A DNA stretch of 46,242 nt, from assembly GCA_964624865.1 (NCBI GenBank), contig CAZUZU010000001.1, positions 2,823 to 49,064 of the forward strand, read 5' to 3'. Under the pieces are notes generated by a model. That model searched no databases, was not told where the DNA came from, and was given only the letters and a program-made list of their open reading frames with translations. Positions within the stretch are counted from its first letter, which is position 1. Each line of letters starts with the position of its first letter. This document shows, one piece after another, positions 9,203 to 46,242 of the stretch. The DNA comes from an uncultured archaeon. Lineage in GTDB: Archaea > Thermoplasmatota > Penumbrarchaeia > CAZUZU01. Made by a program: the position numbers and the translations under genes.

Positions 9203-9206
9203 TTTT

Positions 9207-11595: not shown

Positions 11596-11636
11596 CAGAC
11601 ACGTTAATCCGCTTATATATATGATGAGGCGATAGG

Positions 11637-11720
11637 ATGAAAAGAATCGTAGTAGCAACAGTTGTTATGACTTTGGTAGTAGTGGGCCTGATGAACATGT
11701 TCTCCATGCACGCGGAGGCG
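11637..11720 (+). other. Signal peptide of the 2,410-aa protein
   Basis: MKRIVVATVVMTLVVVGLMNMFSMHAEA|VSF has a basic N-terminus, a hydrophobic core, and an AxA-like cleavage motif. Confidence 0.6.
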
Positions 11721-14700
11721 GTAAGCTTTGATAACCCCGTTCCGGCATACGGGGACTGGGTGGGGAACGATGTGAACTTCACAGTTGAGGATAGCGAGAT
11801 TGGCACAACAACCCAGGTGGCAATGTATATCGACGGCGAGCTGGTCACCTACATGACGAAAGATGGAACAACCAGTCGGTGGTATGCGAATTTGAACGTG
11901 AGCGCTTATTCCGACGGTGCGCATACTATCACCTATGCTGGCGTTGGAGCACCGGAGGATTACATGACCCTTACCGTGAACTTCGACAGCCATGCCCCGG
12001 AACTCTCGGATTTCAATGTGGTTTATCCGGATACTTACGAGGCCGCACGAGAGGGTTCCGAGATCTATTTCCAGGTCGGAGCCTACGATTCGGTGGGGAT
12101 AGACAAGGTGGAGATCGACTGCGGCTCGTTCAATTTCACACCCAGCTCTCCCTTTCCTCATGAGATGTACGACACCGGGCTTAACAATGACTTTGACCCA
12201 AACGACGGGATGTACGGCAGCGATTATTATGTCGTCGATGACCTTCCCGAATCGGGCTATTATCCGGTGCAGGTCAGTGCAACGGATCTCCAGGGGAATA
12301 CTATCTCTGGCAATTACTATATCAAGTACGATGAGACAAAACCACAGGTAAGTGGGGTAACAGTGATATACCCTCCCCACCAAAGTTCTGTGAAGAACGG
12401 GGACATGGTCAATATCCGCGCCACAGTGGAAGACCACCATAATACCACAGTACCCGGCAAGATCAAAACCGTGACAGCATATCTCGATGGTGGAGGAGGG
12501 CTTCTGGGATCGGCGGAGGGGTCGGTGCTTTTGTATGATGACGGAAATCACTTTGACTTCCTTGCCGGTGACAACATATACGGAACCGGCTGGGTAGAGG
12601 TTTCTTACGAAGGCACGGCCTCTCTCCCTATCAATGTAACGGCCTACGATCATGCCGGCAACACATGGTATGACGAAAGCTCCACTCTCCATGTGGATAA
12701 CTATCCCCCGTATCTGGCGGGGGAAACCGTAGAGTATCCATCCGGGCAGAACACGGTTGCCGACGGACAGGAGGTGAACATATCTTTATCCGATGTAGGT
12801 GACGCTGAATATCTTTATCTGGACGCCAGTTCGGTCGGATACGGCTCGGCCCTCCCCAACGAAACGGGTTCTTCTTCTTGGGAGGATATCCCTATCTCCA
12901 CCGGTTATGATAGTGACATATATACGGTAGTGGTACGCGGGATCGACGATGCAGGCAATATTGGTTATAGAGATGTATACATAGCCGTACACAACCCTCC
13001 CCCGGAATTGGAAATAGTAAATCCGATGAACGGAGAAACGGGCCTAAACGGCAATCTCACGGTAAATGTCAATATAACTGCCAATGCCACTATAACGGGG
13101 AGTAACGGTTTGGTGGACCACGTCAGGTTATATGTGGACGGGTCCCATGAATCCAACCTAATTTATAATTCCACGTCTGATTACTGGGATACCGAAATAA
13201 ATACAAGCAACTGGTTCGACGGCATGCATACGATAAAGGTCACTTTAACCGATATCAAGGGAAGGGAGGTGACCGACTCGGTTTACGTCGGGTTCTCGAA
13301 CTATAACAACCAGATATCGATAACCGACCCCGCGGACGGGACGAACTTGAGTGGTAGTAGAAAATTCACTGCCTCGGTATCTGATAACATCGTTGTTGCG
13401 GAGCTCTATGTTGACTCCGTTTTGGTAGATATTAATAGTTCGATCACAGGCGGCCTTGTAACCTTCTCTATCGATACGGGCAACTACGACGACGGGAGCC
13501 ATGTCATCAAGATAAGGGGGGAGGACAACAGGGGTGAAACTGTAACCGATATGATTTCGGCTGTCTTTGATAACACCCCGCCGGTTTTGGAAGGCCTGCA
13601 GATACACTACCCCGGTAGTGGCAACGGGCTTCTCCCCGATGAAGCGTTATATATATCCGTCCGAGCCTCGGACTCTGGAACAGGTATCGACGCTTTCATG
13701 GCCGAGTCTGGGCATTTCACTGGTTCCGGAGCCCTGGCTGACGACGGCAAGGGAAACGACGAGGTATCGGGGGACGGAGTATACACCTCCAGCGATCTTA
13801 CAGTGGATATGACAACCCCGGAAGGTACCTATACGGTCTATGTCAACGCCACGGATTACATGGGGGCCAAGGCGTCTTCCGTGGCACAGTATCACGTCTT
13901 TGATGATGCACCCGACGCTTTTGTGGCTGATTTCGTGAGCCCCGCCCCGGGTTCTTACCAGTCCTCCGCCTTTACAGTGGCAATCACAACCGAGAACAGC
14001 CTAAGCGGGGCAGAGGTCCAGCAGCTGAGAGTGAACTCAAGCCACACAGGGGCAACATGGTATCAGACAACCTACAATCCCACGACCAGTAGGTGGGAAC
14101 ACACCTTCCCCAGCGGCAGCTTCAACGAAGGCCCGGTCACCATCTATCTCAACGGCAGCAACGAGATGGGCCTGTTCTGCGATGAAAAATCGGTGCAGGT
14201 TTTTGTGGATACTGTTTCTCCCACGCTTCAGATTATCGAACCCCAGAGCAACCAATTCATCTCCGGCTCTTACGAGCTTCGCATTAATGCCTCGGACATG
14301 AACTCCGGCATTGACCCTACAACAGTGAAATATTCTGTTGACGGCGGTTCTCCCAATAGCATGTCCCCAACCACTGGCATGTCCTGGAATTATGTTTCAA
14401 CACTTGATACTTCGGCCTTGACCGACGGAGCCCATGAAATCATCTTCCAGGCCAAAGACATCGCAGGCAATCAACAGACCGGCCAGGTTGCAATTTATGT
14501 GGACAACAATGCCGCATCAATGACAGAATGCACAATAATAAACCCGGCGGATGACGAGTATGTGTCAGGCGACTATACATTCAGCGTGCTGGCCACGGAC
14601 GGGCAGGGAATTGCAAATGTGACCCTCATACTAGATGGCCAGTTTATTTCCATGGCATATAATGCCCAGACAGGATATTATGAGCATACCATGGACACCA

Positions 14701-19038: not shown

Positions 19039-20796
19039 ATGATACGAAGATCTAGGTTAAGGCACCTCGTAATCGGACTGTTTGTGGTTCTATTCCTTCT
19101 CGTGTCATCACTGTCGGCCTTTTCCTTACCTACCCATTCTAAGATCATAACCAAGGAAGAAAGCGGGTATAGGCCCCTGTACGAGGTGGACAGGGACATG
19201 CTCCAGAATAAATACGATTTTTCAAAGATCGGGGACGTTGACGACGATCCCTCCGATTTCCAGAGATACTACACATACGAGGAGATGGAGCGGGACCTAA
19301 AATCACTTACCTCCCAACACAGCGACATTGCACAACTCCACCAGCTTACCCGCACGTACGACGGGCATTACGTTTATGCCGTAAAGATATCCGACGAGGT
19401 CGGGACACAAGACCCGGAAGAGCCCGACGTTCTGTTGATAGGCGCGCATCACGCAAGGGAATGGCCCTCGTTCGAGGCGCCCATGTACTTCCTATTCCAT
19501 ATTCTGGAGAACTACGGCACATGCGCCAGGGCCACCTGGCTTGTCCACAATCGTGAGATATGGGTGATCCCGATGCTCAATCCCGACGGCGTGGTCTACG
19601 ATATGGAGACCGGGGGAGGGAGCTGGCGAAAGAACAGGGAACCCAACTACCTTTCCCAGACCGTTGGCATTGGTCCTCTGCCCGACCCGAAACTCGTTCC
19701 CGTATCCTACGGCACTGACCTGAACCGCAACTACGAGTATCGATGGGGTTTCCTTGGAGGATCCAATCCCCACTTAAGCTTCGTTGGAAACTATCCCGGC
19801 CCGCCTGACAACAAGGACGACGACGGGGACGGGTTGATGAACGAGGACCCTGTTGACTTGGAGGACAATGACAGGGACGGTAAGGTTGACGAGGACACAG
19901 CAGGCGGCTTTTCCACAGCTGAGACCAGGGTCATAAGGGACCTTGCGGAAGCGAACGATTTCGTGGTCTCCCTCTCTTTTCATACCTATAGCGAGCTCAT
20001 TCTCTGGCCCTGGGGATGGACCGATGAACCTACTCCGGACGACGAGATATTCGTGAAACTTGGCACGGAAATGGGTCGAATGACCAACTATACCCCGCAG
20101 CAGGCCTACGAGTTATATCCGGTTGACGGGGACAGCGACGACTGGCTCTATGCTATACACGGCGTATATGCCTTTACCATAGAGATGTGCCAGGAGTTCA
20201 TTCCACCGGATGAAGAGGTTCTGGAGTTTTCCCAGCTGAACCTCGGCCCCCAGCTGTTCCTTGCCGAAGTGGCGGACAACCCTTCCATGGAGGAAGTGGA
20301 GATAATCCACGAACCTCTGGATAATGTCAGCGAGCCTGTGGACTTCTATCCCGTTAAGGCAATTATCAACGATCCCTACCAGATATTGAACATGACCACC
20401 GAGGGCCTGCCGCACATGGAAGAGGAGAAAGGTGGCATGGAACTCTATTACAGGGTGGACGGGGGTGAGTTCAAAGCCATGGAAATGGCCCTTAGAAAAG
20501 CGAAGAACGGTACCCCGTTCTACGAGGCGGACATCCCGTCTCAAAGGGAGGGAAGCACCATCGATTACTACTTCTCGTTCACTGATCCAAGGGGTGTGGT
20601 GGTCTCAGATCCAAAATATTCCCCCTATTCACATCACACTTTCAGCATCAAGACAGTGGAGATTGAGTTCACTCTCTCACTTACAGGAGCTATTATAACT
20701 GCGGTGCTTATCCTATCCGCATGCTGGGGCGGTTTCGCTTACACCGCCAGGATGGGGTTCATCGCAGAGCGGAGGAAGGAGGAATTGTATGGCTAG
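19039..20796 (+). CDS. Membrane-anchored zinc carboxypeptidase, peptidase family M14
   Basis: GAHHAREWPS carries the HxxE zinc motif. NPDG, NRNY, and SFHTYSELILWPWG (third zinc His) are also present. There is an N-terminal signal/anchor and a C-terminal TM helix (LTGAIITAVLILSACWGGFAY). The ORF track starts at GTG 19021. I prefer ATG 19039 (MIRRSRLRHLVIGLFVVLF). Confidence 0.9.
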   Translation: MIRRSRLRHLVIGLFVVLFLLVSSLSAFSLPTHSKIITKEESGYRPLYEVDRDMLQNKYDFSKIGDVDDDPSDFQRYYTYEEMERDLKSLTSQHSDIAQLHQLTRTYDGHYVYAVKISDEVGTQDPEEPDVLLIGAHHAREWPSFEAPMYFLFHILENYGTCARATWLVHNREIWVIPMLNPDGVVYDMETGGGSWRKNREPNYLSQTVGIGPLPDPKLVPVSYGTDLNRNYEYRWGFLGGSNPHLSFVGNYPGPPDNKDDDGDGLMNEDPVDLEDNDRDGKVDEDTAGGFSTAETRVIRDLAEANDFVVSLSFHTYSELILWPWGWTDEPTPDDEIFVKLGTEMGRMTNYTPQQAYELYPVDGDSDDWLYAIHGVYAFTIEMCQEFIPPDEEVLEFSQLNLGPQLFLAEVADNPSMEEVEIIHEPLDNVSEPVDFYPVKAIINDPYQILNMTTEGLPHMEEEKGGMELYYRVDGGEFKAMEMALRKAKNGTPFYEADIPSQREGSTIDYYFSFTDPRGVVVSDPKYSPYSHHTFSIKTVEIEFTLSLTGAIITAVLILSACWGGFAYTARMGFIAERRKEELYG

Positions 20797-22342
20797 TGCC
20801 GGCAAGGGCGGTTTCACCTCCAGGTGGGGGCTTATACTGGCAGCGCTGGGTGCGGCGATCGGCACAGGTAACATATGGCGTTTTCCAATGAAGGCGGCCA
20901 TGTACGGCGGCGGCTCGTTCCTGATACCGTGGCTTCTCTTTCTCTTCATATGGTCCATACCTCTGCTGATGGCGGAGTTTGCTCTTGGCAAGGCAACCAG
21001 AATGGGTACCATAGGCACTTTCAAGAAGTTCGTCGGCAAGAAATTCGCCTGGATGGGTGCATGGATGGTGTTCGTGACCACCGCCATCAACTTTTACTAT
21101 GCGGTGGTAATGGGCTGGGTCCTCAGATACTTCATGATCTCCGCCACCGGCAATATAGGGGGAGATACGCATCACATATGGGCTATATTTATAGAGTCGC
21201 CGCTGCAGGTGGTGTTCTTCCAGGCCCTTGCGGTCTTCATCGGCGCCTACGTGGTATACAGGGGCATAGCAGGCGGTATAGAGAAGGCAAATATGATCCT
21301 TATTCCTACCTTGTTCGTACTGCTGATCTTCACGGCGATATGGGCCCTTACCCTCCCCAACGCGATCACGGGTTTCGTATATTTGTTCACTCCCCAGGTG
21401 GACGCAAACGGAGTTCCCTTTCTATTGAGGGGAGATACGTGGATCGAGGCACTGGCACAGAGCGCTTGGAGCTGCAGCGCGGGGATGGGGATGGCGATAA
21501 CCTATGCCGTGTACATGAAGAAGCGCGAGGACACCAACCTCAACCCGGTTATTGCCGGGCTGGGAAACAGCTCCGCCTCATTGATCATCGGGATAGCCGT
21601 ATTCTCTACGGTATTCGCCCTCTCCGCTAATCCCCAGGGGGTAATGAGAACAGATTCCACCGCCCTTACCTTCATCCACCTTACCAACTTATTCAACACC
21701 ATACCGATGGGATATCTGCTCGCAGGTATCTTCTTCCTTGCAATGTCATTTGCCGCACTGACATCCCTTATTTCTGGCTATGAGATCGCTTGTCGAAATT
21801 TTATGGACGCCGGCTTTTCCAGGCCCAGGGCGATCAAGGTGGTGGCGACAGCAACCTTCATACTCGGTCTCCCGTCAGCGACCATTATTGGGTATATTCA
21901 TGGTGAGCCAACCGCCGCGTTCCTGGAGAACCAGGACAATGTATGGGGCCTTGGCTTGATCCTAAGCGGCCTTTTCGTGTCCTTCGCCGTATGGAAGTAC
22001 GGCGCGGAGAGGTTCAGACAGAAGTACATAAACACCGAGTACAGCGACCTGCACGTGGGCAAGTGGTGGACATATATCATCACCTACGTGTTCCCGGTTC
22101 TATTCACCGTTCTGATAGCATGGTATATTGTACAAACCTACCTGGAAACATCGGCGAGGTGGTGGGCCTCAGGACCGATCGGACTGCTCCTGCTCCTGCT
22201 CCAGTGGGGGGTGGTAATATTCCTTCTTTTATTGTTCAACAATCGGATAGCCAACGCGGTGAAAGGTGGTATCATGGGGGAAGACGGGGAAGAATGGCGC
22301 TCGGAAGGCGAGGAGGGCGAAGAGGTCTACGTGCTTGAATAA
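20789..22342 (+). CDS. Sodium-dependent transporter, SNF/SLC6 (LeuT-like) family
   Basis: SRWGLILAALGAAIGTGNIWRFPMKAAMYGGGSFLIPW is the hallmark TM1 motif, and about 11-12 hydrophobic helices follow. The start overlaps the M14 gene end by 8 nt, with GGAGGAAGGAGG about 7 nt upstream. Confidence 0.9.
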   Translation: MASAGKGGFTSRWGLILAALGAAIGTGNIWRFPMKAAMYGGGSFLIPWLLFLFIWSIPLLMAEFALGKATRMGTIGTFKKFVGKKFAWMGAWMVFVTTAINFYYAVVMGWVLRYFMISATGNIGGDTHHIWAIFIESPLQVVFFQALAVFIGAYVVYRGIAGGIEKANMILIPTLFVLLIFTAIWALTLPNAITGFVYLFTPQVDANGVPFLLRGDTWIEALAQSAWSCSAGMGMAITYAVYMKKREDTNLNPVIAGLGNSSASLIIGIAVFSTVFALSANPQGVMRTDSTALTFIHLTNLFNTIPMGYLLAGIFFLAMSFAALTSLISGYEIACRNFMDAGFSRPRAIKVVATATFILGLPSATIIGYIHGEPTAAFLENQDNVWGLGLILSGLFVSFAVWKYGAERFRQKYINTEYSDLHVGKWWTYIITYVFPVLFTVLIAWYIVQTYLETSARWWASGPIGLLLLLLQWGVVIFLLLLFNNRIANAVKGGIMGEDGEEWRSEGEEGEEVYVLE

Positions 22343-22449: not shown

Positions 22450-23916
22450 ATGGAAAATGGATCGGGTAGACATTGGCCCAGCCGTACCGGTTTTCTTTTG
22501 GCGGCCATGGGCTCGGCCATGGGCCTGGGGAATGTGTGGCGGTTTCCTTACTTTGCATATAAATACGGCGGCGGAGCCTTTCTCGTTCCCTATCTAATAG
22601 CTCTTTTTACAACCGGGATACCTTTATTGATCCTGGAGATGGGAATCGGGAAGAACATGCAGGGATCCCCTCCCTTCTCATTCCATAAGATGGACCGGCG
22701 TTTTGCCTGGCTGGGATGGTTCATGCTTCTGGTAGGCTTTGTTATAATCATTTACTATACGGTGGTGATCGGTTGGTCCTTGGCCTATATGCTGAAATCA
22801 CTGACCCTTTCCTGGGGCACGCATCCCGAGCATCATTTCTATAACGATTTCATTGGTCGAACCTCCTCTCCCGCCCTCATGGGGGGTATCGATCCCACTT
22901 TGTTGATAGTAATTGTGACCACGTGGGCAATAATGTACTGGATCGTTTGGAAGGGTGTGAAACGGGTAAGCAAGGTGGTTAAGCTCACGGTTCCCCTGCC
23001 GGCATTGCTACTTGTGATATTAGCCATTAGGGGCCTTACCCTTCCCGGCGCGTCCATAGGTCTGAATTATTACCTTTCCCCAGATTTGGGGGCATTGCTT
23101 GATCCAGAGGTATGGCTTGCAGCCTACGCCCAGGTGTTCTTTACGCTCTCGCTTGCAGGCGGGGTTATGATAGCCTATTCTTCTCGTTTACCGGAAGACG
23201 CAGATGTTACCAACAATGCACATATCGTATCTTTTACCAACTGTGGTCTGGCCTTCTTCGCAGGTCTTGTGGTTTTTTCCACCTTGGGTTACCTGGCTTA
23301 TTCCACTGGGCAAGATATCGGTACAGTGGTGGAGAGCGGGCCCGCCCTGGCTTTTGTCATATATCCAACGGCCATCTCATTAATGCCCGCGGGAGCCGCT
23401 CTTTTTGGCTTCATTTTCTTCCTCACCCTATTTCTTTTGGGTATAGATTCGGGATTTGCCTTGATAGAGGCATTTGTCATGGGTTTCAGCGAGGCGGGAT
23501 TTGATGAGAGAAAGGTCCTGACCGCCGTTACCTGCGTCGGAACGATCATCGCACTTCTGTTCGCTACCGGCGGCGGCTACCATTGGCTTACCATCGCGGA
23601 CCAGTTCTTCAACGAAGTAGGGCTTCTCATTATCGGAGTTATCGAATGTTTGGTGGTAGCCTACTGCTACGGGCCAGATAGATTCCGCTCTCTCTGCGAC
23701 GAGACGTCCGAGATACCTATTGATAAGTGGTGGAAGAACAGTATAATGTATTTCACTCCGATCATACTTTCCATCATACTCATACTTAGAATTGCGGATA
23801 CGGTGGTCAACGGTTACAGCGGCTATCCAAACTGGGCCATAATTCTGGGGGGATGGTTGCCTCTACTGATACTCTGGCTGGGCGGGATATACCTGTGGAG
23901 GAGGTGGAATTATTGA
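22450..23916 (+). CDS. Sodium-dependent transporter, SNF/SLC6 (LeuT-like) family, second paralog
   Basis: WPSRTGFLLAAMGSAMGLGNVWRFPYFAYKYGGGAFLVPY is the hallmark motif, and the protein is polytopic. Confidence 0.9.
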   Translation: MENGSGRHWPSRTGFLLAAMGSAMGLGNVWRFPYFAYKYGGGAFLVPYLIALFTTGIPLLILEMGIGKNMQGSPPFSFHKMDRRFAWLGWFMLLVGFVIIIYYTVVIGWSLAYMLKSLTLSWGTHPEHHFYNDFIGRTSSPALMGGIDPTLLIVIVTTWAIMYWIVWKGVKRVSKVVKLTVPLPALLLVILAIRGLTLPGASIGLNYYLSPDLGALLDPEVWLAAYAQVFFTLSLAGGVMIAYSSRLPEDADVTNNAHIVSFTNCGLAFFAGLVVFSTLGYLAYSTGQDIGTVVESGPALAFVIYPTAISLMPAGAALFGFIFFLTLFLLGIDSGFALIEAFVMGFSEAGFDERKVLTAVTCVGTIIALLFATGGGYHWLTIADQFFNEVGLLIIGVIECLVVAYCYGPDRFRSLCDETSEIPIDKWWKNSIMYFTPIILSIILILRIADTVVNGYSGYPNWAIILGGWLPLLILWLGGIYLWRRWNY

Positions 23917-39100: not shown

Positions 39101-42100
39101 AACGAGTGGGAATACACCGGCAACGATACGTTCCTTGTGGACGCATCGGTGAACGGCTTTGAGCCCGCTCTGTTGTCGGAACAGAACGTGCACGTGAGCG
39201 ACGATTCAGTGGGATACAGCTACATCCCGCTTGAGATAACCTCGGATTATGCAGGGAATGTCACGATTTCCAATCTGACCGTTTATTATAATATCTCGGC
39301 TGTAGTTAGGAACAATAATGTTATTAATACCGGGAATACGATGATAAATGCTGCGGATTCCTGGAGCAGAATCGTGTCAAATATCGTGGCTTCGGACAAT
39401 TCGTCAAGCACGGGCATAAAGAACAGGGAATCCGGAACCAAAGGAGATTCGGGGTCTTTGATATTCGACAATATAATCACAAATTCTGGAGATTACGGAA
39501 TAAACATCAACGTGACAGGCACGGTTATGAACGGCAACACGATATCAAACCCGGATTACGGCATATATTTCGACGAGGCGTCATATAACGCCGTTGGTGA
39601 TAACATAATATCGAATTGTACCGATTACGGCATATATCACAGGGACGAAAATCGAAAGGAGTTCGGCCCTGAGATGTATACCGAAATTTTTTCAAATACC
39701 ATTTCAGGCTGCAACATGGGATTGTACATGGATTCGGTAAACGACACCGTTTATTCGAACACGTTTTCTGGTTGTGATTACGGGTTCTCCTGGTATAACT
39801 CGTATGTAGGTAATGTCACAGGCAACAACTTCGACAACTGCAGTTACGGCGCCTACGCCTATGTGGTGGAAGATGAAACGACGTTACTCGCCGGGAACGA
39901 TTTCTCAAACTGCGACGTTGGTCTGAGCATGTTCGGCACCGGCAACGCCACCATCAGGAGCAACAAGTTCACGTCCAACACATACGGGATAAGGCTGCGT
40001 AGGGAGTTCAATTCCACAAAGCCCTACAACGTCACTGTTGATTACTGCGACTTCGAGTACAACATGTATGGCGTGGCAGCGTCCAACGTAACGTTCGAGA
40101 TAAACAACTGCACGTTTACATCCAACACTTTCAAGGACGTGTCCCTGCAAAGTACCAAGTCAAGCAATATGACCGACATTGAAACGGACCTTGGGGACAA
40201 TGCCGGTATATTCATGGAGGTGTCGGCAAACCTCAGTATCCAGAACAATACCTTGGAGATAATCAGTGCGGTCGAGTCGGGAGACGTTGACGGGGACGAC
40301 GACGACGATCTCGTAGGATTGTATAGAAATACCACGAGAAACGACTATGGAATCGTGGTTTGGGAATGGGACAACGGCGATTGGGACGACCCGGTTTACA
40401 TAAATTATACGTTAGACGAAGGCGACGAGTTCTCATCAATAAATATAGCCGATTTTACTGAAGACGAAGGCGAGGAAATATTAGTGATATTGAACAAAGA
40501 TGCCGACAATTCAAAAGCCTATATTTATTCCTATGTGGACCGGGCAATCAAGTATGAATTCTCCGATATCGGACCGGACACCGAGGAGTGTATCGTCTAT
40601 GATTACGACCTCGACGGCGACAACGAGACCGCGTTCATCGTCGAGGATTCGGACCAGGTGTGGATATTCGAGGAAGGCGGGGGAAGCTGGAATAGAATCG
40701 GAACCGTTGATGTGATCTCGAACCCCATTTACGGCGATTACGGCAACATCAACTCGTCGATCCCCAACTATCAAGAACTGGTAATCGTGGGTGAATACGA
40801 CGATCCGATAGGGAAGCTCTCGGTCATAAAATACGACGGCGGTTTCGAATCGGAGGATTACACATTTTCCAAGAGGGTGACGGAGGGCGTATCGGTCCTG
40901 GACTGCGACGGCGACGGCACTAAGGAGGTGGTGGTGACCTTCGCAGGCGAGGCGAGGATCATGTCATATGATACAGGCGAGTGGACGGTGGAGAACTCGG
41001 TGGACCTGCCGTGGGACCATAAATCCCGGGTGGAGAGGGGAGATTTCAACAACGATTCAATCGAGGATTTCATGCTCGGCTGGCGGGAGATTGTCAACAA
41101 CGATATGTACATCTACACCGCCTACTGCTACTTCTGGAACGATAATGCCGACGACTACGCAATAGTCAACATGGAGTTCAACATGACCCACAGCGTGGCA
41201 TACGACACGGAGGGAGGGGTTTCCATAGGCGACCCGGACAACGACGACGTGCCAGAGGTGGTCATCGCCCTGGAGATCGAGGGTGACGGCGAGAACCAGG
41301 ATGTGCTGGTGTACGACCTCGATTACTCCCAGGGATTCGTGAATCGAACGGTACGGGTGCAGGTGTACAACGACACCAACGCCCCCCTGGAGGGCGTGAG
41401 CGTCGCGGTCAGGGATGCGGAGGGCGCCGTAAGGTTCAGCGACACCACGGGATCGGACGGGCTCACGGGCAACCATATCGTGCCGCTCAAGGAGTTCAGA
41501 GGGGACGTATCGGACTACAAGATCATATACTACTCGCCGTTCAACGTGTCGGTGAACGACACCACGGAGTATTCGCTGGTGCGCCACTGCACCGTGATAC
41601 CCGGCACCGGCATTGCGACCATCAAGATGTGGCTGGGCGAAGACACGGACCAGGACGGGCTTACTAATGGGGAGGAGAACAACAGCTACCTCAGCAACTG
41701 GAGCAGCGAAGACACGGACCAGGACGGACTTAGCGACGGATACGAGGCAGGGATCAACGCCAGCACTTGCCCGAGGTTCTACAATTCCAGCACGAGCAGG
41801 TGGGAGCCCACGATCATCGATACCGGCAGGTACGCGCCGAGCGGGAGGAACGCTACCAGTGTCACCAGCGTGGACACTGACGGTGACAAGCTGCTTGACG
41901 GGAACGATATCTGGCTTGCGAATATCACCACCTCGGTCTACGATGCCTGGATCGAGCGGCACTATGTCTTCGACAACGACATGTTCATCGGTGAGGAGGG
42001 CGAGGGCACGAACCCGATAGACAACGACACCGATCGGGGCGGGGTGGAAGACGGCATCGAGTACCGGAGCGGGCAGGACCCCACCACCGACACGGGTGAG

Positions 42101-45058
42101 CGTGCTAACGACGGTGACTTCGACGGGCTGACAAGGAACGACGAGGACGAGTACTACAGGGATCCGAATGATAACGACGAGGACTGTGATGGTGACGGAT
42201 TACTTGATAGCGAGGAAGAATACGGTTCAAGAAAGGGAGGGGAGCCCGGGAGTTATGTGACGAGGTCTAATGACTACGATGGTGATGGAATATCAGATGA
42301 TAAAGAGATGTGTTACGTTAATGGAGTGAGAGGTGCCTTTTTTTACGAGGCCGAAGCTTCTTATCAACGTACCTGTGGGATAAGTCATAGTAATAGTCCT
42401 ATGCCTAAGGCCATTCATATTGATCCCAACCCAGAAGCTAACGATGCGGTGATCGGAACTGCTACATCAAATCTTTTGTGTGCTTGGAATATTGAATATC
42501 CCGAGGATTGCACCGGAAGTGGCATCGATTTTAATAAAAATCATGACTCTTTGATATCCAGTCATAATTATCGATTTGTTTTAAGGATGAGAGAGAGTTA
42601 TGAACAAAAGGATTCAAAGATAAGAGTTGTAGTAAGAAATTTTAATGTGTTTGGAGAATCATTAGAAATATTTAATAATAGCATGACTGTAAATCCCAAT
42701 TCACGTGGTTATGAATGGATACCTTTTCCGCATACCTTAAATTATTATAAATCTCGGTCTCATGAATACACCCAAGTTGAATTCTATGATGTTTCTGAAA
42801 ATGATCCGGTTACAATTTGGGGGTCTTGTAATTTGGAATTGGATTCCATAATATTAATCGATGCGTCACTCCAGTATTGGCGGACACAAAGTACTCAGGT
42901 AACCTTACCATATTGTAAAGATAGTGACGGAGATCTTATATGGGACGATGACGAAGTAATAGAGGGTAATTATTGGCTTCCTGCAGAGTGGTATAAAACA
43001 AATTATGCGACAGACAGGATTGATGAACGTTCGGTAGGTTATTCCGTTAATAGAGCTACCAATGACAATGAAAACCCCGTATTAGATATTGATAATATCG
43101 ATTTTAATAATGCAATGTACTCCATATATTGCAGGGGTCTAAATGAGAAACGATGTAGTTATGAAGAGATGGATCCAAATGATTATAATTATTTTAAAAT
43201 AAAGATTCAAGGCGTAGATAAAAAATATTTTTACAATTATTACAGCGGCGGCTCATTAGGCCCCAAAGGTATCTATGATAGCTCAAATATTATTGAACGA
43301 AAAGTTTATGTCACTGATGACAAGGTATGGGGAAAAACATGGTACAATCCACCTGCCCGCGGCAAATATACCAATAATCTACACGTATATCATTGTCGCC
43401 AATTTAAACCCGATACCTCTACAAATCAAAGGATTATATTCTATGATTATAACGATTGCGGTATGAAATTTGATTGGATATCGGTAATAAAAAATGAAAA
43501 CGTAGACGATTATCTGCCTTCAAATCCTCTTTCTTTTGACACTGATGGCGATTATATTTGGGATAAGGTAGAAATTGCATATCAGGAGACAGATATGGAA
43601 ATTAATGGTGATGATTGGTACGATTGGTATGAAGGAAGAAATGAAGTAGAAGGTGTAGATTGGTATGATGATGCTCTTTGGATAGATCAATCCGAATCCG
43701 GTGTATTAAGAGCATATCATCCTTTAGGTGAGATAGATAATGATATTTATTACGATAGTGAATATAATATAGATAACAAGGACGTAATATATTTAAATGA
43801 GTATCAATATCTATCATTTGATATGTCTCTTGACAAAGAAAAAAAGGATGACGGGTCTGAACCTTTTTCTAAATTATTTTTAATTCTTGGGATCTTTTAT
43901 ACAAGTAAGAATTCTGTTGAGTATAAAATAATCAACATTGACACCGAATGTTGGCCGTCATCCCCACAAATAACATATAATTGGTATTATTACTCTGAAA
44001 AGAAAGTTAAAATCGATTTGAGAGACATAGGTTCTGTAATTTATCCAGAAGAGCAATGTAAACATAATTATTATTATCCTGTCCGATGGATAACACATAT
44101 GGCGTTTTACGCATATAGCAATGATAATTGTGAAAAAATATATAAGATATCATCAATTAGATTTGAGAAACAACTCAATCCTTTAAGTGATGATAGTGAT
44201 AACGATGGAATACAAGACGGTTATGAGATTGGCTGTTATGATTATTCTTATTCATACTTTAATTGGCACTATAAACCGAGTGGAACATCTTATAAACCGA
44301 AATATGATTATGAAAAATCTTCAGGATGTTTAGATCCCGATACCGATAATGATGCATTGCTTGATGGAATGGAGGCCCATAGACATTTATCATTAAAAGA
44401 TAAGGATACGGACAATGATGGTTTAAATGATTATTATGAATATGTTGCTTATGGACATTATGGTTTCAATGGTTACTATTCATACGGTCGTATCCCAAAG
44501 GGATATTCAGCGTCCTTGCCGTATCTTCAACATCATCCCCATACAAATATTCCGGACATTTATATCGAAATGGATTGGATGCGCAATTGTGAACCTGAAG
44601 ATAGTGATGGTAACGATGTTTGGGATTTTGTGGAGATAGCAATGGATATATTTTACAATCGAGGAATTCATCTACATGTAGATAATGGCTGTATGGGTAG
44701 TGGTTCGCAAACATCTAGAAAAGGTACGATTGAAGACGCATCTTGGGGTATAAAAAACGAGCATTTTTCAAGAGAAGGTATGGGTATATTTTATTATGGC
44801 TTAATTTGCATTGAATTATCAGGAGGATATGTGGGTAAAGGCGGTGGATATAAGATCGCAATTGCAAGTGCGAAAATGGATTCGACAAAGGAATGGGCGG
44901 GAGTGTTTTTACATGAATTGGGACATTGTGTCATCAGGGGTTGGGATGATCATTGTAATAATGATCCATGTGCAATGCAAGGAAGTTATTCTGGAGTTCC
45001 TGATCTAACTTATTGTAAGAAATGTACCGAATTAATCGATCCAGGGAAAGGGATATAA
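30086..45058 (+). CDS. Giant (4,990 aa from ATG 30086; 5,002 aa from ORF-track start 30050) mosaic secreted surface protein with a C-terminal metzincin-like domain
   Basis: About 15 kb is uninterrupted in one frame. The preferred start gives MEKDRSQKLRNVKRAFSISAIFILLISGIPMLVSA (signal/anchor). The domain calls are in the sub-features below. Confidence 0.9.
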   Translation: MEKDRSQKLRNVKRAFSISAIFILLISGIPMLVSALDGPGTDPEAKERSNPKLVWDFDVKENNGKYIAKTPVHEVEFPEYFKDGISLMIGGESIVYGIERLDYETERKQWYTRNNLTEKYTLYTEGEEKQVYWADTKPSWMNASYGEWTLYDEVSLLPGRSKVLIQGTKVVYKDAFQGVDIIFEVQFTKVKETIVLNRDFDFCVSPLRIKSRVCSMDDIAFTGGLKNIISTGANAFEIESPYYVNDNKKGDYCTFEYDAVDKNTIDMITEISNSRIRNHNVNGVPIIIDPTLGSSLSGSILYEGLSNGTVKETIDGTVTYYEDQNNRIYAESDVDISGSLILDNITLKVNSSSGSIYTINVTDSGRFDILNASAVKNNNTGYGYNLRYLSGSRGTINNSLIENVSGEYEGLRTETSELNITNSLIRNSESHGVYCNASWPVIYGNSIYNCSGDGVYYQGQSVEMDLTDEENTTTNSNLNFTSEGIRVNGSGPDTGYLITDEIELPDDCLWEGIKITEENNITGLSYLASITDPNNNPIDGFTNISGLPEYIDISSINPVKFDTIGIFVNISHPESNNGNISILTIKTGFEPKRKIVDDLSNDRYISESSGISQSNGMIAPKYGSGYAFDIDTTADFDAGDKGSNESGNVSVETSTDNYNIDAGEIQLSNRYCDKFEYADSDGETWKWDQWTPTGSWSVHENDIDTTEDGEFYQSISSTDYQQNRFYLGGESEYVLSGDFDIRMAIELGYWVYGGSYGTRQKYAHFYLRDSGGTWAYISREVDNYCTDIFRWRTANTHQYIWNYHDKTCAMRFTRTGSTLKMYYRNDMNVESESWTLKATDSSWTSNDVYVFLRFYDNAMNNYNADVHWDDFWIKEGDLKEYGYCQYGNYTTENLTIESGQVLDYVRVDHENLDSENKINWVAFLNDTGSVVANYTNNGSGITSGNYTIISDNNLDEGNLSDINGTYRINVGLKGNKSSTPVITRLSGELDTVNESYFTTTEIESETYEQWDALLLNKSTSDVDNFITVSVLDGETNSTITGYSELSGSYIPLSGIDTYLHTSLKLRFDFITDGSNPPELYEWQLHKTPRWSYNYIYDCENGIRLNGSSPLISNNYIYKNSESGISIDNSYSSTLGRRMTYENVQLFGASPVEYDFDTSEGFAHMDDQTNSQSFWNSTTQSIDFISNTNDPAGSFERMQINLSTKLSPNSFWSLESEFHLTFRNNSEGAYGDMSVIPVLLNSTDDEYGRIYVHAYGGNDTINNNCDVISIYYQSSIGASNTTICQYYSDDTGNGSYDGDYFIRIWYHPWESTLYGQICNASKQSDVLASGSLVKPNILIENISAGVCAGQGSSSSNYYEGYVNEIKLYLGLPEIIESDDLNVTPYNASLNKVSETSGYLVTAPLTIDDYYTGVSLNLTTTEPANTSISVSILDAVTGDAIEGFENLYSNDIGLVNLTDDSNHGFKLRFDFQGANNSTPVLSKVLFRYYHYEKSGGVIDNVVYHNHDGIMVGNNSDFVSIVGNTIFDNTRYGIHMEGANRLFEYQGLNGYGLSDGINFDSSGSKESIISLPPRSGIYDMNFTVSGEKYIPYGPLGSDYYFQGTRTNSTVNMTLNGTINVTVPTNWTASYAVASYTNLTDNGVETNSSNVNLSCNHSGTNLQFDINSSVYFNSSVLNQTTDILAFNFTVNQTDIEGNLSVVLTFTLQKQTLWEQQEDGYDISVDLDPSKVNLSGLKLIIPIPNNGFVYANASVYNSTCEDPVDYSSNLSTDNKDSGYVVFDIGAIDEDDFTESWDYQHEMDTWSDSHHPTGWSTLTYTNANYITHDTEGDNDYLYSNEQTDWDDCGLQKWNIDLGEDYTIETRVNISSGGFCAFKYYDGSYSCGLSVSEGSFGIDTSQWHTYRKVANDGDYKFYIDGELDSSGSLSSDTSNSHEFWMAYTSLAGMVTGWIDYIKWRSDNEDAELTFDANLTYYLNNPSLSLGDVTLWSHTGEFNTTATPMNNTTAKESYIKSLNQALESDLTSNDLTLSVSAASAGYMNISNLGFHLVRRSYIGKNRIWGGEYGIYVNNSTSVLVDGNHVLNSEVSGIELANCSGRQRSLNSLRGGLSNGTYSFDDDSLTTGENWEMTVPDGSVITNMSFDLSGESYVPLYNLSESHEYTGSISSQYSGMLPANLSGYKPSNWNNITEMTLDASVDSLDYGDCLSLFGLDAVSDTTYTYLWNRSKDEMESSTVDYYRPAVADLVPTRGYRIGYIYSYNSTELNASIWNGSAWIDHVNLTANLTTNQKQCFALDFEYVSLDGVALWAEYNGTAEYLRWATYNSSGWDISNQTINVSNVRWITMSEVGTTGTFLALLQLSNGTVYSMTWNGSEWDNSSVTEISNSSVSTSYCGIALTEYNGNIIALYSETGGLRYRIYSNGWGSEQTVTGISSPYWVELVTNKDGTVCGAASTSSKDLYGLAFTGGSLKESRLLCEDGLHTTTSPCFDVVADSVGDFYFIWSRTDYFNFNITWYNGVYWINQSYWNNTYPDHEDTIGHWHFDTGYGSTVVDSSGYYYNGTIHNAEWDYSGRFHKGVFFNSTEGNNYVEFDDHVSTFDDYSQGILELWFKWNGTDTGGTLFFLGDKDTTNDYAALRVGSSTSNFNDESLGFVFFEGGTCKLGAYARKGETHYRDGQWHHVAWVVGEDFNYMFIDGKKETLSYDYGSSSTGNYFLNVNNADTMTLGLSNNSISHDFFGSIDEMRIIDDEFVKPLDAHWIEVVADTESDRMFLVATGDSYLIHSQYEDSEWTDTEKSSYYLYSPCDSSRSLDASFERINFPPTPFSAAMNVTHNNNTKTYTESSDTITYTYSDNLTCVNVSGADTYNFTVDSDLINVSSDILLTVDAINTTSANWTYVFDASSYNATNVTDGYSIEITLWAPVGVNVTNPQLKVYTPCTSYMEANVTVVGQNENLTSDYIDYSCKSDGYILLDLSGLSEIGWVWNYSANNITINVTLRFSPGELKLDIGGDGDNEWEYTGNDTFLVDASVNGFEPALLSEQNVHVSDDSVGYSYIPLEITSDYAGNVTISNLTVYYNISAVVRNNNVINTGNTMINAADSWSRIVSNIVASDNSSSTGIKNRESGTKGDSGSLIFDNIITNSGDYGININVTGTVMNGNTISNPDYGIYFDEASYNAVGDNIISNCTDYGIYHRDENRKEFGPEMYTEIFSNTISGCNMGLYMDSVNDTVYSNTFSGCDYGFSWYNSYVGNVTGNNFDNCSYGAYAYVVEDETTLLAGNDFSNCDVGLSMFGTGNATIRSNKFTSNTYGIRLRREFNSTKPYNVTVDYCDFEYNMYGVAASNVTFEINNCTFTSNTFKDVSLQSTKSSNMTDIETDLGDNAGIFMEVSANLSIQNNTLEIISAVESGDVDGDDDDDLVGLYRNTTRNDYGIVVWEWDNGDWDDPVYINYTLDEGDEFSSINIADFTEDEGEEILVILNKDADNSKAYIYSYVDRAIKYEFSDIGPDTEECIVYDYDLDGDNETAFIVEDSDQVWIFEEGGGSWNRIGTVDVISNPIYGDYGNINSSIPNYQELVIVGEYDDPIGKLSVIKYDGGFESEDYTFSKRVTEGVSVLDCDGDGTKEVVVTFAGEARIMSYDTGEWTVENSVDLPWDHKSRVERGDFNNDSIEDFMLGWREIVNNDMYIYTAYCYFWNDNADDYAIVNMEFNMTHSVAYDTEGGVSIGDPDNDDVPEVVIALEIEGDGENQDVLVYDLDYSQGFVNRTVRVQVYNDTNAPLEGVSVAVRDAEGAVRFSDTTGSDGLTGNHIVPLKEFRGDVSDYKIIYYSPFNVSVNDTTEYSLVRHCTVIPGTGIATIKMWLGEDTDQDGLTNGEENNSYLSNWSSEDTDQDGLSDGYEAGINASTCPRFYNSSTSRWEPTIIDTGRYAPSGRNATSVTSVDTDGDKLLDGNDIWLANITTSVYDAWIERHYVFDNDMFIGEEGEGTNPIDNDTDRGGVEDGIEYRSGQDPTTDTGERANDGDFDGLTRNDEDEYYRDPNDNDEDCDGDGLLDSEEEYGSRKGGEPGSYVTRSNDYDGDGISDDKEMCYVNGVRGAFFYEAEASYQRTCGISHSNSPMPKAIHIDPNPEANDAVIGTATSNLLCAWNIEYPEDCTGSGIDFNKNHDSLISSHNYRFVLRMRESYEQKDSKIRVVVRNFNVFGESLEIFNNSMTVNPNSRGYEWIPFPHTLNYYKSRSHEYTQVEFYDVSENDPVTIWGSCNLELDSIILIDASLQYWRTQSTQVTLPYCKDSDGDLIWDDDEVIEGNYWLPAEWYKTNYATDRIDERSVGYSVNRATNDNENPVLDIDNIDFNNAMYSIYCRGLNEKRCSYEEMDPNDYNYFKIKIQGVDKKYFYNYYSGGSLGPKGIYDSSNIIERKVYVTDDKVWGKTWYNPPARGKYTNNLHVYHCRQFKPDTSTNQRIIFYDYNDCGMKFDWISVIKNENVDDYLPSNPLSFDTDGDYIWDKVEIAYQETDMEINGDDWYDWYEGRNEVEGVDWYDDALWIDQSESGVLRAYHPLGEIDNDIYYDSEYNIDNKDVIYLNEYQYLSFDMSLDKEKKDDGSEPFSKLFLILGIFYTSKNSVEYKIINIDTECWPSSPQITYNWYYYSEKKVKIDLRDIGSVIYPEEQCKHNYYYPVRWITHMAFYAYSNDNCEKIYKISSIRFEKQLNPLSDDSDNDGIQDGYEIGCYDYSYSYFNWHYKPSGTSYKPKYDYEKSSGCLDPDTDNDALLDGMEAHRHLSLKDKDTDNDGLNDYYEYVAYGHYGFNGYYSYGRIPKGYSASLPYLQHHPHTNIPDIYIEMDWMRNCEPEDSDGNDVWDFVEIAMDIFYNRGIHLHVDNGCMGSGSQTSRKGTIEDASWGIKNEHFSREGMGIFYYGLICIELSGGYVGKGGGYKIAIASAKMDSTKEWAGVFLHELGHCVIRGWDDHCNNDPCAMQGSYSGVPDLTYCKKCTELIDPGKGI
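31106..31470 (+). other. Right-handed parallel beta-helix (PbH1/NosD-like) repeat block
   Basis: INNSLIENVSGEYEGLRTETSELNITNSLIRNSESHGVYCNASWPVIYGNSIYNCSGDGVYY shows a 22-24-aa N-x-I-x-N periodicity. Shorter blocks of the same kind lie at about 33350-33480, 34565-34700 and 36230-36365. Confidence 0.7.
37681..38320 (+). other. LamG / concanavalin-A-like lectin domain (LamG_3-type)
   Basis: HWHFDTGYGSTVVDSSGYYYNGTIHNAEW...GILELWFKWNG...GQWHHVAWVVGEDFNYMFIDGKK...GSIDEMRIIDDEF. Two further jelly-roll-like segments lie at about 32105-32710 and 35448-35955. Confidence 0.7.
39302..40260 (+). other. Large parallel beta-helix (PbH1) repeat block
   Basis: There are more than 10 consecutive units. Examples: DNIITNSGDYGININVTGTVMNGNTISNPDYGIYFDEASYNAVGDNIISNCTDYGIYH, then NTISGCNMGLYMDS, NTFSGCDYGFSW, NNFDNCSYGAYA, NDFSNCDVGLSM, NKFTSNTYGIRL. 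Confidence 0.8.
40268..41330 (+). other. FG-GAP/VCBS-like repeats (integrin-alpha-type beta-propeller)
   Basis: Ca-loop motifs recur every 55-70 aa: GDVDGDDDDDLVG, ADFTEDEGEEILV, YDYDLDGDNETAFIV, LDCDGDGTKEVVV, GDFNNDSIEDFMLG, GDPDNDDVPEVVIA. Confidence 0.7.
41341..41636 (+). other. Carboxypeptidase-regulatory-like (transthyretin-like) beta-sandwich domain
   Basis: VRVQVYNDTNAPLEGVSVAVRDAEGAVRFSDTTGSDGLTG fits the typical V-x-V-x-D...PL-x-G-V-x-V...T-x-x-DG pattern. Confidence 0.55.
41637..42310 (+). repeat. TSP3-like calcium-binding repeats forming the linker before the low-GC tip
   Basis: EDTDQDGLTNGEE, EDTDQDGLSDGYE, VDTDGDKLLDGND, DNDTDRGGVEDGIE, DEDCDGDGLLDSEE, DYDGDGISDDKE. A 22-nt direct repeat gcgaagacacggaccaggacgg occurs at 41637 and 41706. 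Confidence 0.8.
41675..41712 (+). repeat. Internal copy of the 38-nt exact repeat (encodes ENNSYLSNWSSED)
   Basis: gagaacaacagctacctcagcaactggagcagcgaaga is identical to 46205-46242. It starts on a codon boundary of the giant ORF. Confidence 0.95.
44560..45055 (+). other. C-terminal zinc metalloprotease domain, archaemetzincin (M54)-like metzincin
   Basis: HELGH lies at 44912-44926, followed by CVIRGWDD-HC-NNDP-C-A-M-(12 aa)-C-KK-C (CxxC at 45014-45025). This compares with the published archaemetzincin signature HEXXHXXGX3CX4CXMX17CXXC, with altered spacings. Confidence 0.6.
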
Positions 45059-45628
45059 ATGGACAAGAAATACAGTCCGTTGATTACTATAGGTTTGGTA
45101 ATAATCCTATGTCTGGCTTTTTATTATGGTTATATTAATAATTATTTTTTAAAATATCCCTGTTATAGATATAAATATACGGTAGAAATTAATACTGATT
45201 CGCCGGAGAATTATACTATTTATGTACCAATACTGGTAAATGAAGATGATGGTGAAATATCGAAAGCGATGAATAATTTGGAGAAATCAGGTAAATGTTC
45301 ATATGAAATAACGAATTCGAGAAATGGATGGGCTATGATGATAGAGGGTATAGGAAATATTACTTTACTCTCTGAGGGTGAAAAAGAAATACAATATGCA
45401 TGGTTGAGCATGTATAATGCCTCTTATGGTGAAAATAAAAGTTTTGGTGAATATTGGATATATTCTGACCATAAAGGAAATAATTCAATAGATGTTTGGG
45501 TGTATGGTTATATAGACAAGGGACATAGTGAATTTGAAGGCAAGAGTTATGTAAGTTATGTTAGATGCCAGATTAAAGAATCGGGATGGCAGAGATATAG
45601 GGGAGATCATGGGGTATCTGTTGTTTAA
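45059..45628 (+). CDS. Hypothetical 189-aa single-pass membrane protein, translationally coupled to the giant ORF (candidate cognate partner, inhibitor or immunity protein)
   Basis: The ATG directly abuts the giant ORF stop (ataTAAATGgac). It has the same low-GC composition. An N-terminal TM helix (LITIGLVIILCLAFYYGYI) precedes a beta-rich domain of about 150 aa. No family was recognised. Confidence 0.7.
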   Translation: MDKKYSPLITIGLVIILCLAFYYGYINNYFLKYPCYRYKYTVEINTDSPENYTIYVPILVNEDDGEISKAMNNLEKSGKCSYEITNSRNGWAMMIEGIGNITLLSEGEKEIQYAWLSMYNASYGENKSFGEYWIYSDHKGNNSIDVWVYGYIDKGHSEFEGKSYVSYVRCQIKESGWQRYRGDHGVSVV

Positions 45629-46167
45629 ACACGAAAACGCCGTGAAATCTGAAGTAATACCTGGCATTTCGGGAGACCATAGCCCCCGCCCTTCTAACTA
45701 CGGAAATGCCGTATTACGGAGAGCTGGCCGGTTTTACGGTCGTTTTCCAGATAGCCGCTGAAATATTCGAAAAGAGAGATGCAAGCAAGATGGAAAGGAG
45801 AAAAAAGAAGGTAGTCAAAAATGGGAATCCTCCACCTCGGCAACGTGTGCTGGCGTAAGAAGTCCAAATCTCTTGGTATGAGCGCTTCGAGGACAACCCA
45901 TGGGGTTTTGGGCATGGGTCACCGCAGAAGCGATGAGGGAGGGCATAAAGGGCGCCGGTCCGAGCGAGTGCAGGGAGCGAGGATAGCGCTTGCGGGGTGG
46001 GAGGAAGAGTGCGAGCAGGCGTTACCGAGGTTTTTGGTACCTGTAGGTTTTTGGCGAGGTAATGCCAGCGGAGCACGAGGGGCAAAAAGACCAGGGTGCG
46101 AGCGCTACATCGAAGGCACTCGTCCGTTATCGTGTCCGTCCACAAGAGTGGAGTCGATGCCAGGCAA

Positions 46168-46204
46168 GAGAGCCGGGCACTGGCTCTCGGCCCTTTGTGT
46201 TTGT
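46168..46204 (+). terminator. Hairpin plus T-rich tract (terminator-like) immediately before the repeat junction
   Basis: A 7-bp stem pairs gagagcc (46168-46174) with ggctctc (46182-46188) around a 7-nt loop. ggccCTTTGTGTTTGT follows, ending at 46204. Confidence 0.35.
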
Positions 46205-46242
46205 GAGAACAACAGCTACCTCAGCAACTGGAGCAGCGAAGA
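46205..46242 (+). repeat. Terminal copy of the 38-nt exact repeat, running off the window end
   Basis: A character-by-character comparison with 41675-41712 gives 38/38 identity. Identity stops abruptly at 46204 (t) versus 41674 (g). The extent beyond 46242 is unknown. Confidence 0.95.

Follow-up and report, generated by a model that had tools for sequence, protein, structure and literature searches.

A metzincin-like protease domain at the tip of a giant, probably secreted archaeal protein, in what may be an exchangeable C-terminal cassette

That polymorphic toxin systems include metallopeptidase (zincin) tips and orphan cassettes is well established (PMC3482391). In the Thermococcales, VARTIG is a large surface protein with a hypervariable C-terminal region, followed by shorter genes that align to that region; its authors liken the modules to polymorphic toxin systems, reporting no recombination within the loci and defining no precise recombination site (PMC8416519). 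Archaeal conflict systems of the polymorphic toxin type have so far been predicted rather than experimentally characterized (PMC8416519). We consider here a stretch of 46,242 nucleotides (the window) assembled from a microbial-mat metagenome and assigned to an uncultured archaeon of the Thermoplasmatota, in which a giant gene ends in a zinc protease domain and is followed by a small open reading frame (ORF), a GC-rich structured element, and the beginning of what would be another C-terminal end for such a gene. According to the reading developed below, to which we give a probability of roughly 0.6, the giant secreted protein ends in a modular C-terminal cassette whose tip is the protease, and which is organized like those of polymorphic toxins and accompanied by a cognate partner. 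Coordinates are collected in Table 1.

The giant protein begins with a hydrophobic segment (AFSISAIFILLISGIPMLVSA) that could serve as signal or anchor, and because of this segment the description "secreted" is reasonable from the sequence alone. Pfam recognizes in it parallel beta-helix/NosD repeats, a Laminin_G_3 domain, an FG-GAP-like region, TSP3-like calcium-binding repeats and the C-terminal protease. An earlier note on this DNA, made from the letters only, had placed an archaemetzincin-like signature at the very C-terminus of a giant secreted, adhesin-like protein, and as to location this is a fair description, considering both the N-terminal segment and the domain content. The last 50 residues before the stop codon are FLHELGHCVIRGWDDHCNNDPCAMQGSYSGVPDLTYCKKCTELIDPGKGI. 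The motif they contain, HELGH-x8-HC-x4-C-x-M-x12-CKKC, has exactly the spacings that had been reported; a scan of all six frames with a regular expression encounters it once (nucleotides 44912-45025, residues 4955-4992), its HELGH is the sole HExxH of the giant protein, and it arose in 0 of 20,000 composition-preserving shuffles of that protein. The start proposed for the domain, 44560, lies within the domain's first beta-strand, PDIYIEMDWM (nucleotides ~44555-44581), as judged by the structural model described next.

The model was made with AlphaFold2 from a 201-residue C-terminal query and was built on 33 sequences (predicted local distance difference test, pLDDT, 73; predicted template modeling score, pTM, 0.76). 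Its strands (E) and helices (H) come in the order E35-43 (the strand just mentioned), H58-68, E73-77, E113-119, E128-131, E134-138, H145-160 and H189-200, which reads as beta1, helix A, beta2 to beta5, active-site helix, Met-turn region and C-terminal helix, the canonical order of metzincins, with HELGH inside helix 145-160. Foldseek returned 613 matches from the PDB. The best are snake-venom metalloproteinases (M12B), ADAMs, fragilysin, ADAMTS and ulilysin (probability 1.0, E 5e-6 to 1e-3, template modeling score 0.5-0.58), and no archaemetzincin is present among the top 50, which were inspected. The domain is very probably that of a metzincin protease and probably that of an active extracellular zinc endopeptidase.

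A word-indexed homology search with the 201-residue C-terminus yielded no relatives of the domain; an exhaustive HMMER search over 1.84 billion representatives yielded 39, and the family is found mainly in Thermoplasmatota-like archaeal metagenomes. Its members share the blocks DIFVEVDWM, LHIDDGxMGGGG, IFHYC and FMHELGH and come in two flavors. The first is textbook metzincin, with a canonical HELGHxLGLxH and an S[VC]MNY Met-turn. The second, to which the domain in the window belongs, has a variable insert after HELGH (8 to ~120 residues among the relatives) and then [HY]C-x3-4-C-[AV]-[MF]...YC-x2-[CH]W. In an alignment of 33 family sequences (A3), the H, E, G and H of HELGH never vary, and the Met column hardly does. 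An alignment confined to 11 relatives of the window's subgroup (A2) has three invariant Cys, and equally invariant are the HExxH His and Glu and residues near them; the Met-turn position is Met in 7 and Phe in 4, and at the fourth position of the knuckle there are 8 Cys, 2 His and 1 Phe. Since three of the Cys are invariant while the fourth position may be Cys, His or Phe, the knuckle fits metal binding better than two disulfides, and in the window's subgroup this Cys3-Cys/His arrangement most likely holds a second, structural zinc, as far as conservation can tell.

Which metzincins does the family stand closest to? With M12B enzymes and fragilysin, the domain shares an HExxH on the active-site helix, a Cys-x-Met Met-turn, a local C-x4-C before the Met-turn and an extracellular location. 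It differs from them in lacking HExxHxxGxxHD (8 residues separate the second His from the HC pair), in belonging to a family with conserved blocks of its own, and in the fourth Cys position, where the occurrence of His suggests a metal site in place of disulfides. Archaemetzincins (M54; AmzA, AMZ1/2) carry the signature HEXXHXXGXXHCX4CXMX17CXXC, whose four Cys build a Cys4 zinc finger, structural in role, below the catalytic site, and the closest structural relatives of AmzA are the adamalysins, which have cysteines and disulfides at equivalent positions (PMC3427221, Graef et al.). The domain shares with archaemetzincins the His-Cys directly before C-x4-C-x-M and the later C-x2-C. Its N-terminal subdomain, however, is not M54-like, and it is extracellular and fused, whereas archaemetzincins are small and cytosolic.

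One might nonetheless take the domain for a true member of the archaemetzincins (MEROPS M54), fused in this case to an adhesin. The order HExxH...HC-x4-C-x-M...C-x2-C is retained, as the earlier note had observed, with two spacings altered (x8 before HC, x12 before CxxC), and the profiles respond, if faintly. NCBIfam archmetzin (NF033823) matches 13 of the 33 relatives weakly (best E 7e-6), always at the C-terminal knuckle, and matches the window domain with an E of 6e-4 (19.4-19.9 bits, the curated cut-off being 145). Pfam Peptidase_M54 (PF07998) matches 5 of the 33. A profile search of PDB sequences aligns the knuckle to the archaemetzincins 3zvs, 4axq and 2x7m, at an insignificant E of 0.2-0.5 over 31 profile positions. 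The same search aligns HC-x4-C-x-M, likewise without significance, to the CHC-x4-C-I-M of snake-venom M12B enzymes, and cysteines at equivalent positions are a known trait of adamalysins (PMC3427221). A phmmer search of the PDB sequences with the domain gives no match.

The search with Peptidase_M54, which the earlier note had put forward as a check, gave 11.9-15.6 bits with the window domain, below the cut-off of 24.4, and what aligns with this model, as with NF033823, is only the last ~44 residues. Upstream of these residues, the N-terminal subdomain has its own conserved blocks. Among the sub-threshold to marginal Pfam matches of the 33 members, Reprolysin_3 (16; best E 3e-6) and Reprolysin_5 (12) are commoner than M54 (5), with M66 (7) and M10 (6) between them and weak matches to Reprolysin_4 besides; the window domain itself matches no Reprolysin model. 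The xxGxx of the M54 signature is replaced by 8 residues with no Gly in register, x17 by x12, and the Gly and third His of HExxHxxGxxH are off their canonical positions. Structure prediction, another of the checks proposed, finds metzincins at a Foldseek probability of 1.0, and AmzA is absent from the top 50. Membership in M54 is therefore very improbable. What stands of the archaemetzincin-like claim is a metzincin domain (fold and motif) with an archaemetzincin-like knuckle; what does not stand, on the scores, the spacing and the Foldseek result, is the assignment to M54. In our reading, the domain belongs to an unnamed metzincin family with an adamalysin-like core. The joining of such a core to a knuckle of the archaemetzincin kind bears on how the Cys4 zinc finger of the one group is related to the disulfides of the other.

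In many of its multidomain secreted relatives, the domain is C-terminal, following TSP3 repeats, and further upstream lie beta-helix, subtilase, Kelch or lectin modules. At the other extreme, one relative (P0041) is a stand-alone protein of 237 residues. Because so many relatives are arranged in this way, a C-terminal position on a secreted protein is the norm of the family, and the context is less unusual within the domain's own family than it had appeared when the domain was compared with archaemetzincins.

The protease forms the end of a longer block that differs from the rest of the gene in base composition. GC content falls from ~0.60 to ~0.32 at ~42200 and recovers at ~45650, so that the low-GC block covers the last ~950 residues of the giant protein together with the small ORF of 189 residues. 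In the 734 low-GC residues upstream of the protease, Pfam finds TSP3-like repeats only. A motif of the form DSDGD-(L/Y/V)-(I/V)WD occurs in the low-GC region in three diverged copies (42918-42945, 43536-43563 and 44598-44625), the third of which falls between beta1 and helix A of the protease. From 42000 to 46242, the coding strand has a positive GC skew of 0.2-0.48, much stronger than elsewhere in the window.

Upstream of the drop in GC, the giant gene contains a 38-nucleotide sequence that is repeated perfectly at the very end of the window, where it opens another C-terminal cassette lacking a start codon. Copy number around this junction was assessed by mapping the source run's Logan unitigs to the window, for which the baseline depth is ~4.5. 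Depth reaches 32.8 at 41675-41790, with several divergent continuations. The multi-copy stretch runs from the junction to ~41790-41857, and two copies persist to ~42170; the depth at 41828-42162 is ~9.4, and the sole unitig there differs at 6 positions. Alternative continuations appear after 41790, 41857, 42013 and 42171. The depth and the continuations indicate ~7 copies of the junction, each with a different sequence after it. In the unitigs, a variant of the end of the GC-rich element is also joined to 41675. The exact 32-nucleotide junction word has no match in collections of genome and metagenome contigs, exact matching of the window's proteins to the contig collection gives no entry either, and a protein search with the junction region brings up only distant TSP3 proteins.

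The same repeats raise the question of whether the fusion might be an artefact of assembly, a cassette from another locus or strain having been joined to the giant gene through shared sequence. The path of the assembly crosses the segment of ~7 copies (41675-41790) and that of two (41828-42162), the branch point at ~42171 coincides exactly with the drop in GC, a second head sequence shares 41531-41704 with the window, and the baseline depth is low. Because the assembly crosses repeats, the cassette that truly sits on the giant gene may be another than the one assembled there. Against a wholly artificial fusion, no cassette has a start codon of its own and all continue the reading frame of the junction, which means that the expression of any of them requires fusion to such a gene. 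Furthermore, in another locus (L015, below), the protease is contiguous with its large protein, with only a 39-nucleotide repeat, and in other relatives, too, a long multidomain protein ends in the domain. We consider an artefact improbable, and at most it would alter which of the cassettes occupies the expression site.

The small ORF encodes an N-terminal transmembrane helix and a beta-rich body. A model made from the single sequence (pLDDT 54) was too poor to be used in a search by structure. Homologs of the small ORF come after the protease elsewhere: it is 33% identical (E 8e-13) to the ORF that follows the protease in locus L003, and homology at 27-33% identity, with a shared motif, NYTIYVPIP, connects the small ORF of the window with those of L003 and L015 (both copies). 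In L016, a partial small ORF begins with the same lipobox segment and contains a motif of similar sequence. If polymorphic toxin systems are a guide, the 189-residue protein is a candidate for the cognate inhibitor or immunity protein of the protease. The defense models of PADLOC match neither the tip nor the small ORF nor the low-GC region.

The layout of the window recurs elsewhere. Locus L015, from a different metagenome, encodes an FG-GAP/TSP3 protein of 1727 residues that ends in a protease of the same subgroup. Then come an ORF of 171 residues with a lipobox, a GC-rich non-coding element of 1.27 kb, a perfect 39-nucleotide repeat of the codons LHIDRGGMGGGGS, an orphan, start-less C-terminal half of the protease (7222-7729), a second lipobox ORF (199 residues), and the first ~200 nucleotides of another copy of the element. 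Element, junction box and cassette are found also in L001, L002, L003, L006, L009, L010 and L016; all of these loci, like L015 and the 3' end of the window, have orphan cassettes without a start. Directly after the cassette array of L015, on the minus strand (8543-9544), is a gene of the Exosortase_EpsH type (archaeosortase-like), and a neighboring giant protein in L003 ends in an anchor resembling PGF-CTERM. Surface proteins of this kind may be linked to processing by archaeosortases.

In seven cassettes from different samples, the junction box (CATATCGATGACGGCAGCATGGGCGGGGGTGGACCAATT) is identical even at synonymous sites, and the next 180 nucleotides are 29% identical. Synonymous identity in the box, next to downstream sequence at the level of chance, implies that selection acts on the DNA itself and is the mark of a site of recombination at the DNA level. 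The box lies inside the catalytic domain, in the strand LHIDDGxMGGGG, and for that reason only the C-terminal half of the protease would be exchanged there. Interleaved with the protease cassettes are a transposase of the IS110 family and toxin-antitoxin pairs (PIN/VapC, MazE, DUF433/DUF5615). Such interleaved genes of insertion sequences (IS) and toxin-antitoxin systems are typical of variable genomic islands.

Between one cassette and the next stands the GC-rich element. It runs from 5-20 nucleotides past the stop codon of the small ORF up to the very point at which homology to the expressed gene sets in. Its depth in the window is 12-78, compared to the baseline of 4.5, with sequence variants, one of which has swapped a hairpin. 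Elements range from 240 to 1270 nucleotides across the loci, with multiple hairpins. A 5' motif, CGCCGTGAAATCTG, is common to the copy in the window and both copies in L015, and the 3' part is related to a module in eight other loci. The window copy matches this module weakly (nhmmer E 0.003 over 46091-46184, plus the core AGGCAAGnGAnCCGGnCnCTGGC). From six copies of the module, ~240 nucleotides long, comes a consensus fold with 61 base pairs, of which 15 show compensatory double changes; in one copy, a hairpin carries an insertion of 130 nucleotides. Folding of single sequences gives z from -1.2 to -4.2 on either strand, and covariation in the alignment is the more informative evidence.

Several identities that the element might have had were set aside. 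Rfam has no family for it, in the window or in five other loci, even at E up to 1, and with no match to Rfam or to tRNA there is no support for a known self-splicing intron, a known ribozyme or a tRNA. A G-quadruplex element in the form of four runs of G3 or more with loops of at most 12 nucleotides is rejected, no copy having the motif. The odd N-termini of many metagenomic proteins (KSTPRPPETDGVSG...GKRAGRWRAVVW, ...RAVVW) are not those of real proteins: they arise where the element is translated and its frame continues into the box.

The layout would be the product expected from a single crossover at the box of a circular unit composed of box, tip, small ORF and element. It is conceivable, though we consider it doubtful, that the element and the nucleotide-identical box together make up a dedicated device for cassette exchange, by which the unit is inserted or converted in frame into the gene of a giant surface protein. 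The folded element might then be the recombination site, a guide, or a non-coding RNA promoting conversion. No recombinase is consistently near the element in the loci examined. If such a device were real, it would amount to programmed swapping of protein C-termini in archaea, for which there is no described counterpart.

How, then, does the locus compare with known systems of exchange? It resembles bacterial polymorphic toxins (CdiA-CT/CdiI of contact-dependent growth inhibition, Rhs, Tox-MPTase and further zincin tips) in several respects: a very large secreted repeat protein with a variable enzymatic tip after a conserved junction, a tip of different base composition, a small gene immediately downstream, start-less cassettes further on that have only the junction in common, and toxin-antitoxin and IS genes in the islands. 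It differs in its archaeal host and in a partner that is membrane- or lipid-anchored and extracellular. The junctions, moreover, are not VENN or PxxxxDPxGL, but either a segment flanked by TSP3 repeats or the LHIDDGxMGGGG strand, with exchange of half the protease. A conserved, structured GC-rich element separates the archaeal cassettes, and no secretion or delivery apparatus was identified. VARTIG differs in that an Ig domain varies, with no enzymatic tip, whereas the loci considered here have perfect repeats within the locus and a conserved intervening element. With integrons and attC sites the likeness lies in tandem promoter-less cassettes separated by an element conserved in structure rather than sequence. 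An attC site, however, is an imperfect palindrome of 60-150 nucleotides, far from the lengths and many hairpins of the elements described above, and insertion here would have to be in frame within coding sequence. No integrase was found among the scanned ORFs of the window or the called genes of L015, L016 and L003, whose flanks are limited.

We propose that the cassette is inherited together with the small membrane-anchored protein encoded immediately downstream of it; start-less cassettes follow further on, each of them after a structured element and a stretch identical to the junction in the expressed gene. Recombination at the junction would swap the tip, or elsewhere only the catalytic half, along with the gene of the partner, in the manner supposed for the orphan toxin-immunity modules of bacterial polymorphic toxins. 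The protease would be an extracellular effector, carried at the far end of a long stalk, either displayed there or set free, and acting on surface proteins of neighboring cells, and the small membrane protein would be the producer's own inhibitor or immunity factor. The parts of this proposal do not carry equal weight. The motif, the family, the class of fold, the paired genes, the repeats, their multi-copy depth and the orphan cassettes are observed; catalysis, the second zinc, recombination itself, the inhibitor and the antagonism are what the proposal adds. The cassettes are probably exchangeable; a toxin-immunity function, which is suggested by the analogy with polymorphic toxins, is put forward more tentatively. 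Of the options that the earlier note had listed for the domain, that of an effector or toxin tip gains from the genomic organization, i.e., the pairing of genes, the repeats and the orphan cassettes.

A number of observations weigh against the proposal. The third ligand of HExxHxxGxx(H/D) is not in its canonical place (HELGHCVIRGWDDHC, with Ile at the Gly position and Trp at +6), which leaves D4966, D4967 and H4968, at +7 to +9, as candidates by sequence. The low-GC block, at ~1,100 residues, is far larger than the protease and mostly without a recognizable domain. The small ORFs after the orphan cassettes of L002 and L006 have no detectable similarity to the family of small ORFs. The path of the assembly through repeats of 2 to 7 copies (41675 to ~42170), with its second head, means that the join in the window could be chimeric. 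We know of no archaeal route of delivery for such an effector, and extracellular proteases of sediment and mat archaea are commonly taken to be nutritional.

This last consideration leads to a different view of the locus, in which the protease plays no role in conflict: it would be a housekeeping or nutritional surface protease, or else a self-processing domain responsible for maturation or release of the giant protein, with the small ORF encoding a chaperone or an inhibitor acting in trans in the manner of a prodomain. Variation of the cassettes would then broaden the range of substrates or vary the surface, for example to evade viruses whose receptor is the giant protein. The window does encode a secreted M14 carboxypeptidase and other surface proteins, as would fit a protein-degrading lifestyle. 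The fusion of the family to subtilase, Kelch, beta-helix and lectin modules, and its stand-alone member, are also compatible with this view, and internal proteases process many polymorphic toxins (PMC3482391). Difficulties arise from the cassettes. The catalytic half would be swapped jointly with the small ORF, and several silent copies are retained; this joint swapping, with the silent copies, points to a matched pair under diversifying selection, which would be unexpected for a digestive enzyme. A self-processing protease, for its part, should precede a payload rather than form the variable module at the terminus. A nutritional, surface-remodelling or processing role seems to us plausible but less likely than the proposal, and likelier than a faulty assembly.

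What is added to present knowledge is an unnamed metzincin family and, if the proposal of an exchangeable, polymorphic-toxin-like cassette is right, a cassette system of this kind in archaea. There is evidence, at the level of sequence, that uncultured archaea keep arrays of silent cassettes for protease tips with matched membrane partners. The exchange of half an enzyme, and the structured element at every cassette boundary, provide testable handles on the mechanism of exchange.

Table 1. Location of features in the window and, where a locus is named, in related loci (rc, reverse complement).
Feature	Location	Strand	Evidence or remark
Surface protein, 2410 residues, the second very large one	11637-18869	+	at least 8 Big_7 Ig-like domains, long TSP3 run
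Secreted M14 zinc carboxypeptidase	19021-20796	+	E 4e-54; DxDxDG-rich insert, C-terminal transmembrane anchor
Giant ORF, 5002 residues	30050..45058	+	translation
Junction repeat copy 1, codons ENNSYLSNWSSED, between two TSP3 repeats	41675..41712	+	perfect 38-nucleotide direct repeat
Low-GC block, cassette-specific	42200..45650	+	GC 0.29-0.40 vs 0.55-0.61 just upstream
Last TSP3-type calcium-binding repeat DKDTDNDGLNDY before the protease	44405..44440	+	PF18884 TSP3_bac, sub-threshold; relatives likewise arranged
Metzincin-like catalytic domain, ~167 residues	44555..45055	+	AlphaFold2 model, Foldseek, 39 HMMER relatives
HELGH, residues 4955-4959	44912..44926	+	two zinc ligands and catalytic Glu by sequence; A2, A3
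H4968-C4969-NNDP-C4974-A-M4976	44951..44977	+	candidate third zinc ligand, first knuckle Cys pair, Met-turn Met
C4989-K-K-C4992	45014..45025	+	second Cys pair of the knuckle
Small ORF, 189 residues	45059..45628	+	start codon directly after the stop codon of the giant gene
GC-rich (0.50-0.57) non-coding, hairpin-rich, multi-copy element, ~570 nucleotides	45633..46204	+	closed in all frames
Junction repeat copy 2, start of a further start-less C-terminal cassette leaving the window	46205..46242	+	frame +2: ...ENNSYLSNWSSE
Element copies elsewhere	L015 5951-7221; L001 194-431; L002 479-717, 3873-3900; L003 12742-12931; L009 999-1237; L016 7179-7413		
39-nucleotide junction box encoding HIDDGSMGGGGPI	L001 438; L002 724; L006(rc) 603; L009 1244; L010(rc) 1322; L016 7419 and 8210		
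Transposase and toxin-antitoxin sites	L002 1627-2874 (-); L001 1-147; L010(rc) 177-919; L016 7535-8151; L003 12037-12715		

Other genes of the window are those of an archaeon: there is a Pus10 with an archaeal THUMP domain, a KaiC-like protein, and a PurL whose best matches, at no more than ~50% identity, are mostly in metagenome-assembled genomes of Thermoplasmatota. The second very large surface protein has a C-terminal transmembrane segment and a tail of repeated KRHGPDSFEAK. An ORF of 359 residues (11613..12692) overlaps its gene on the opposite strand and is probably spurious. After the gene of the M14 carboxypeptidase come two genes resembling those of sodium:solute symporters (20789-22342 and 22450-23916), and the three together look like a set for the degradation and uptake of peptides.

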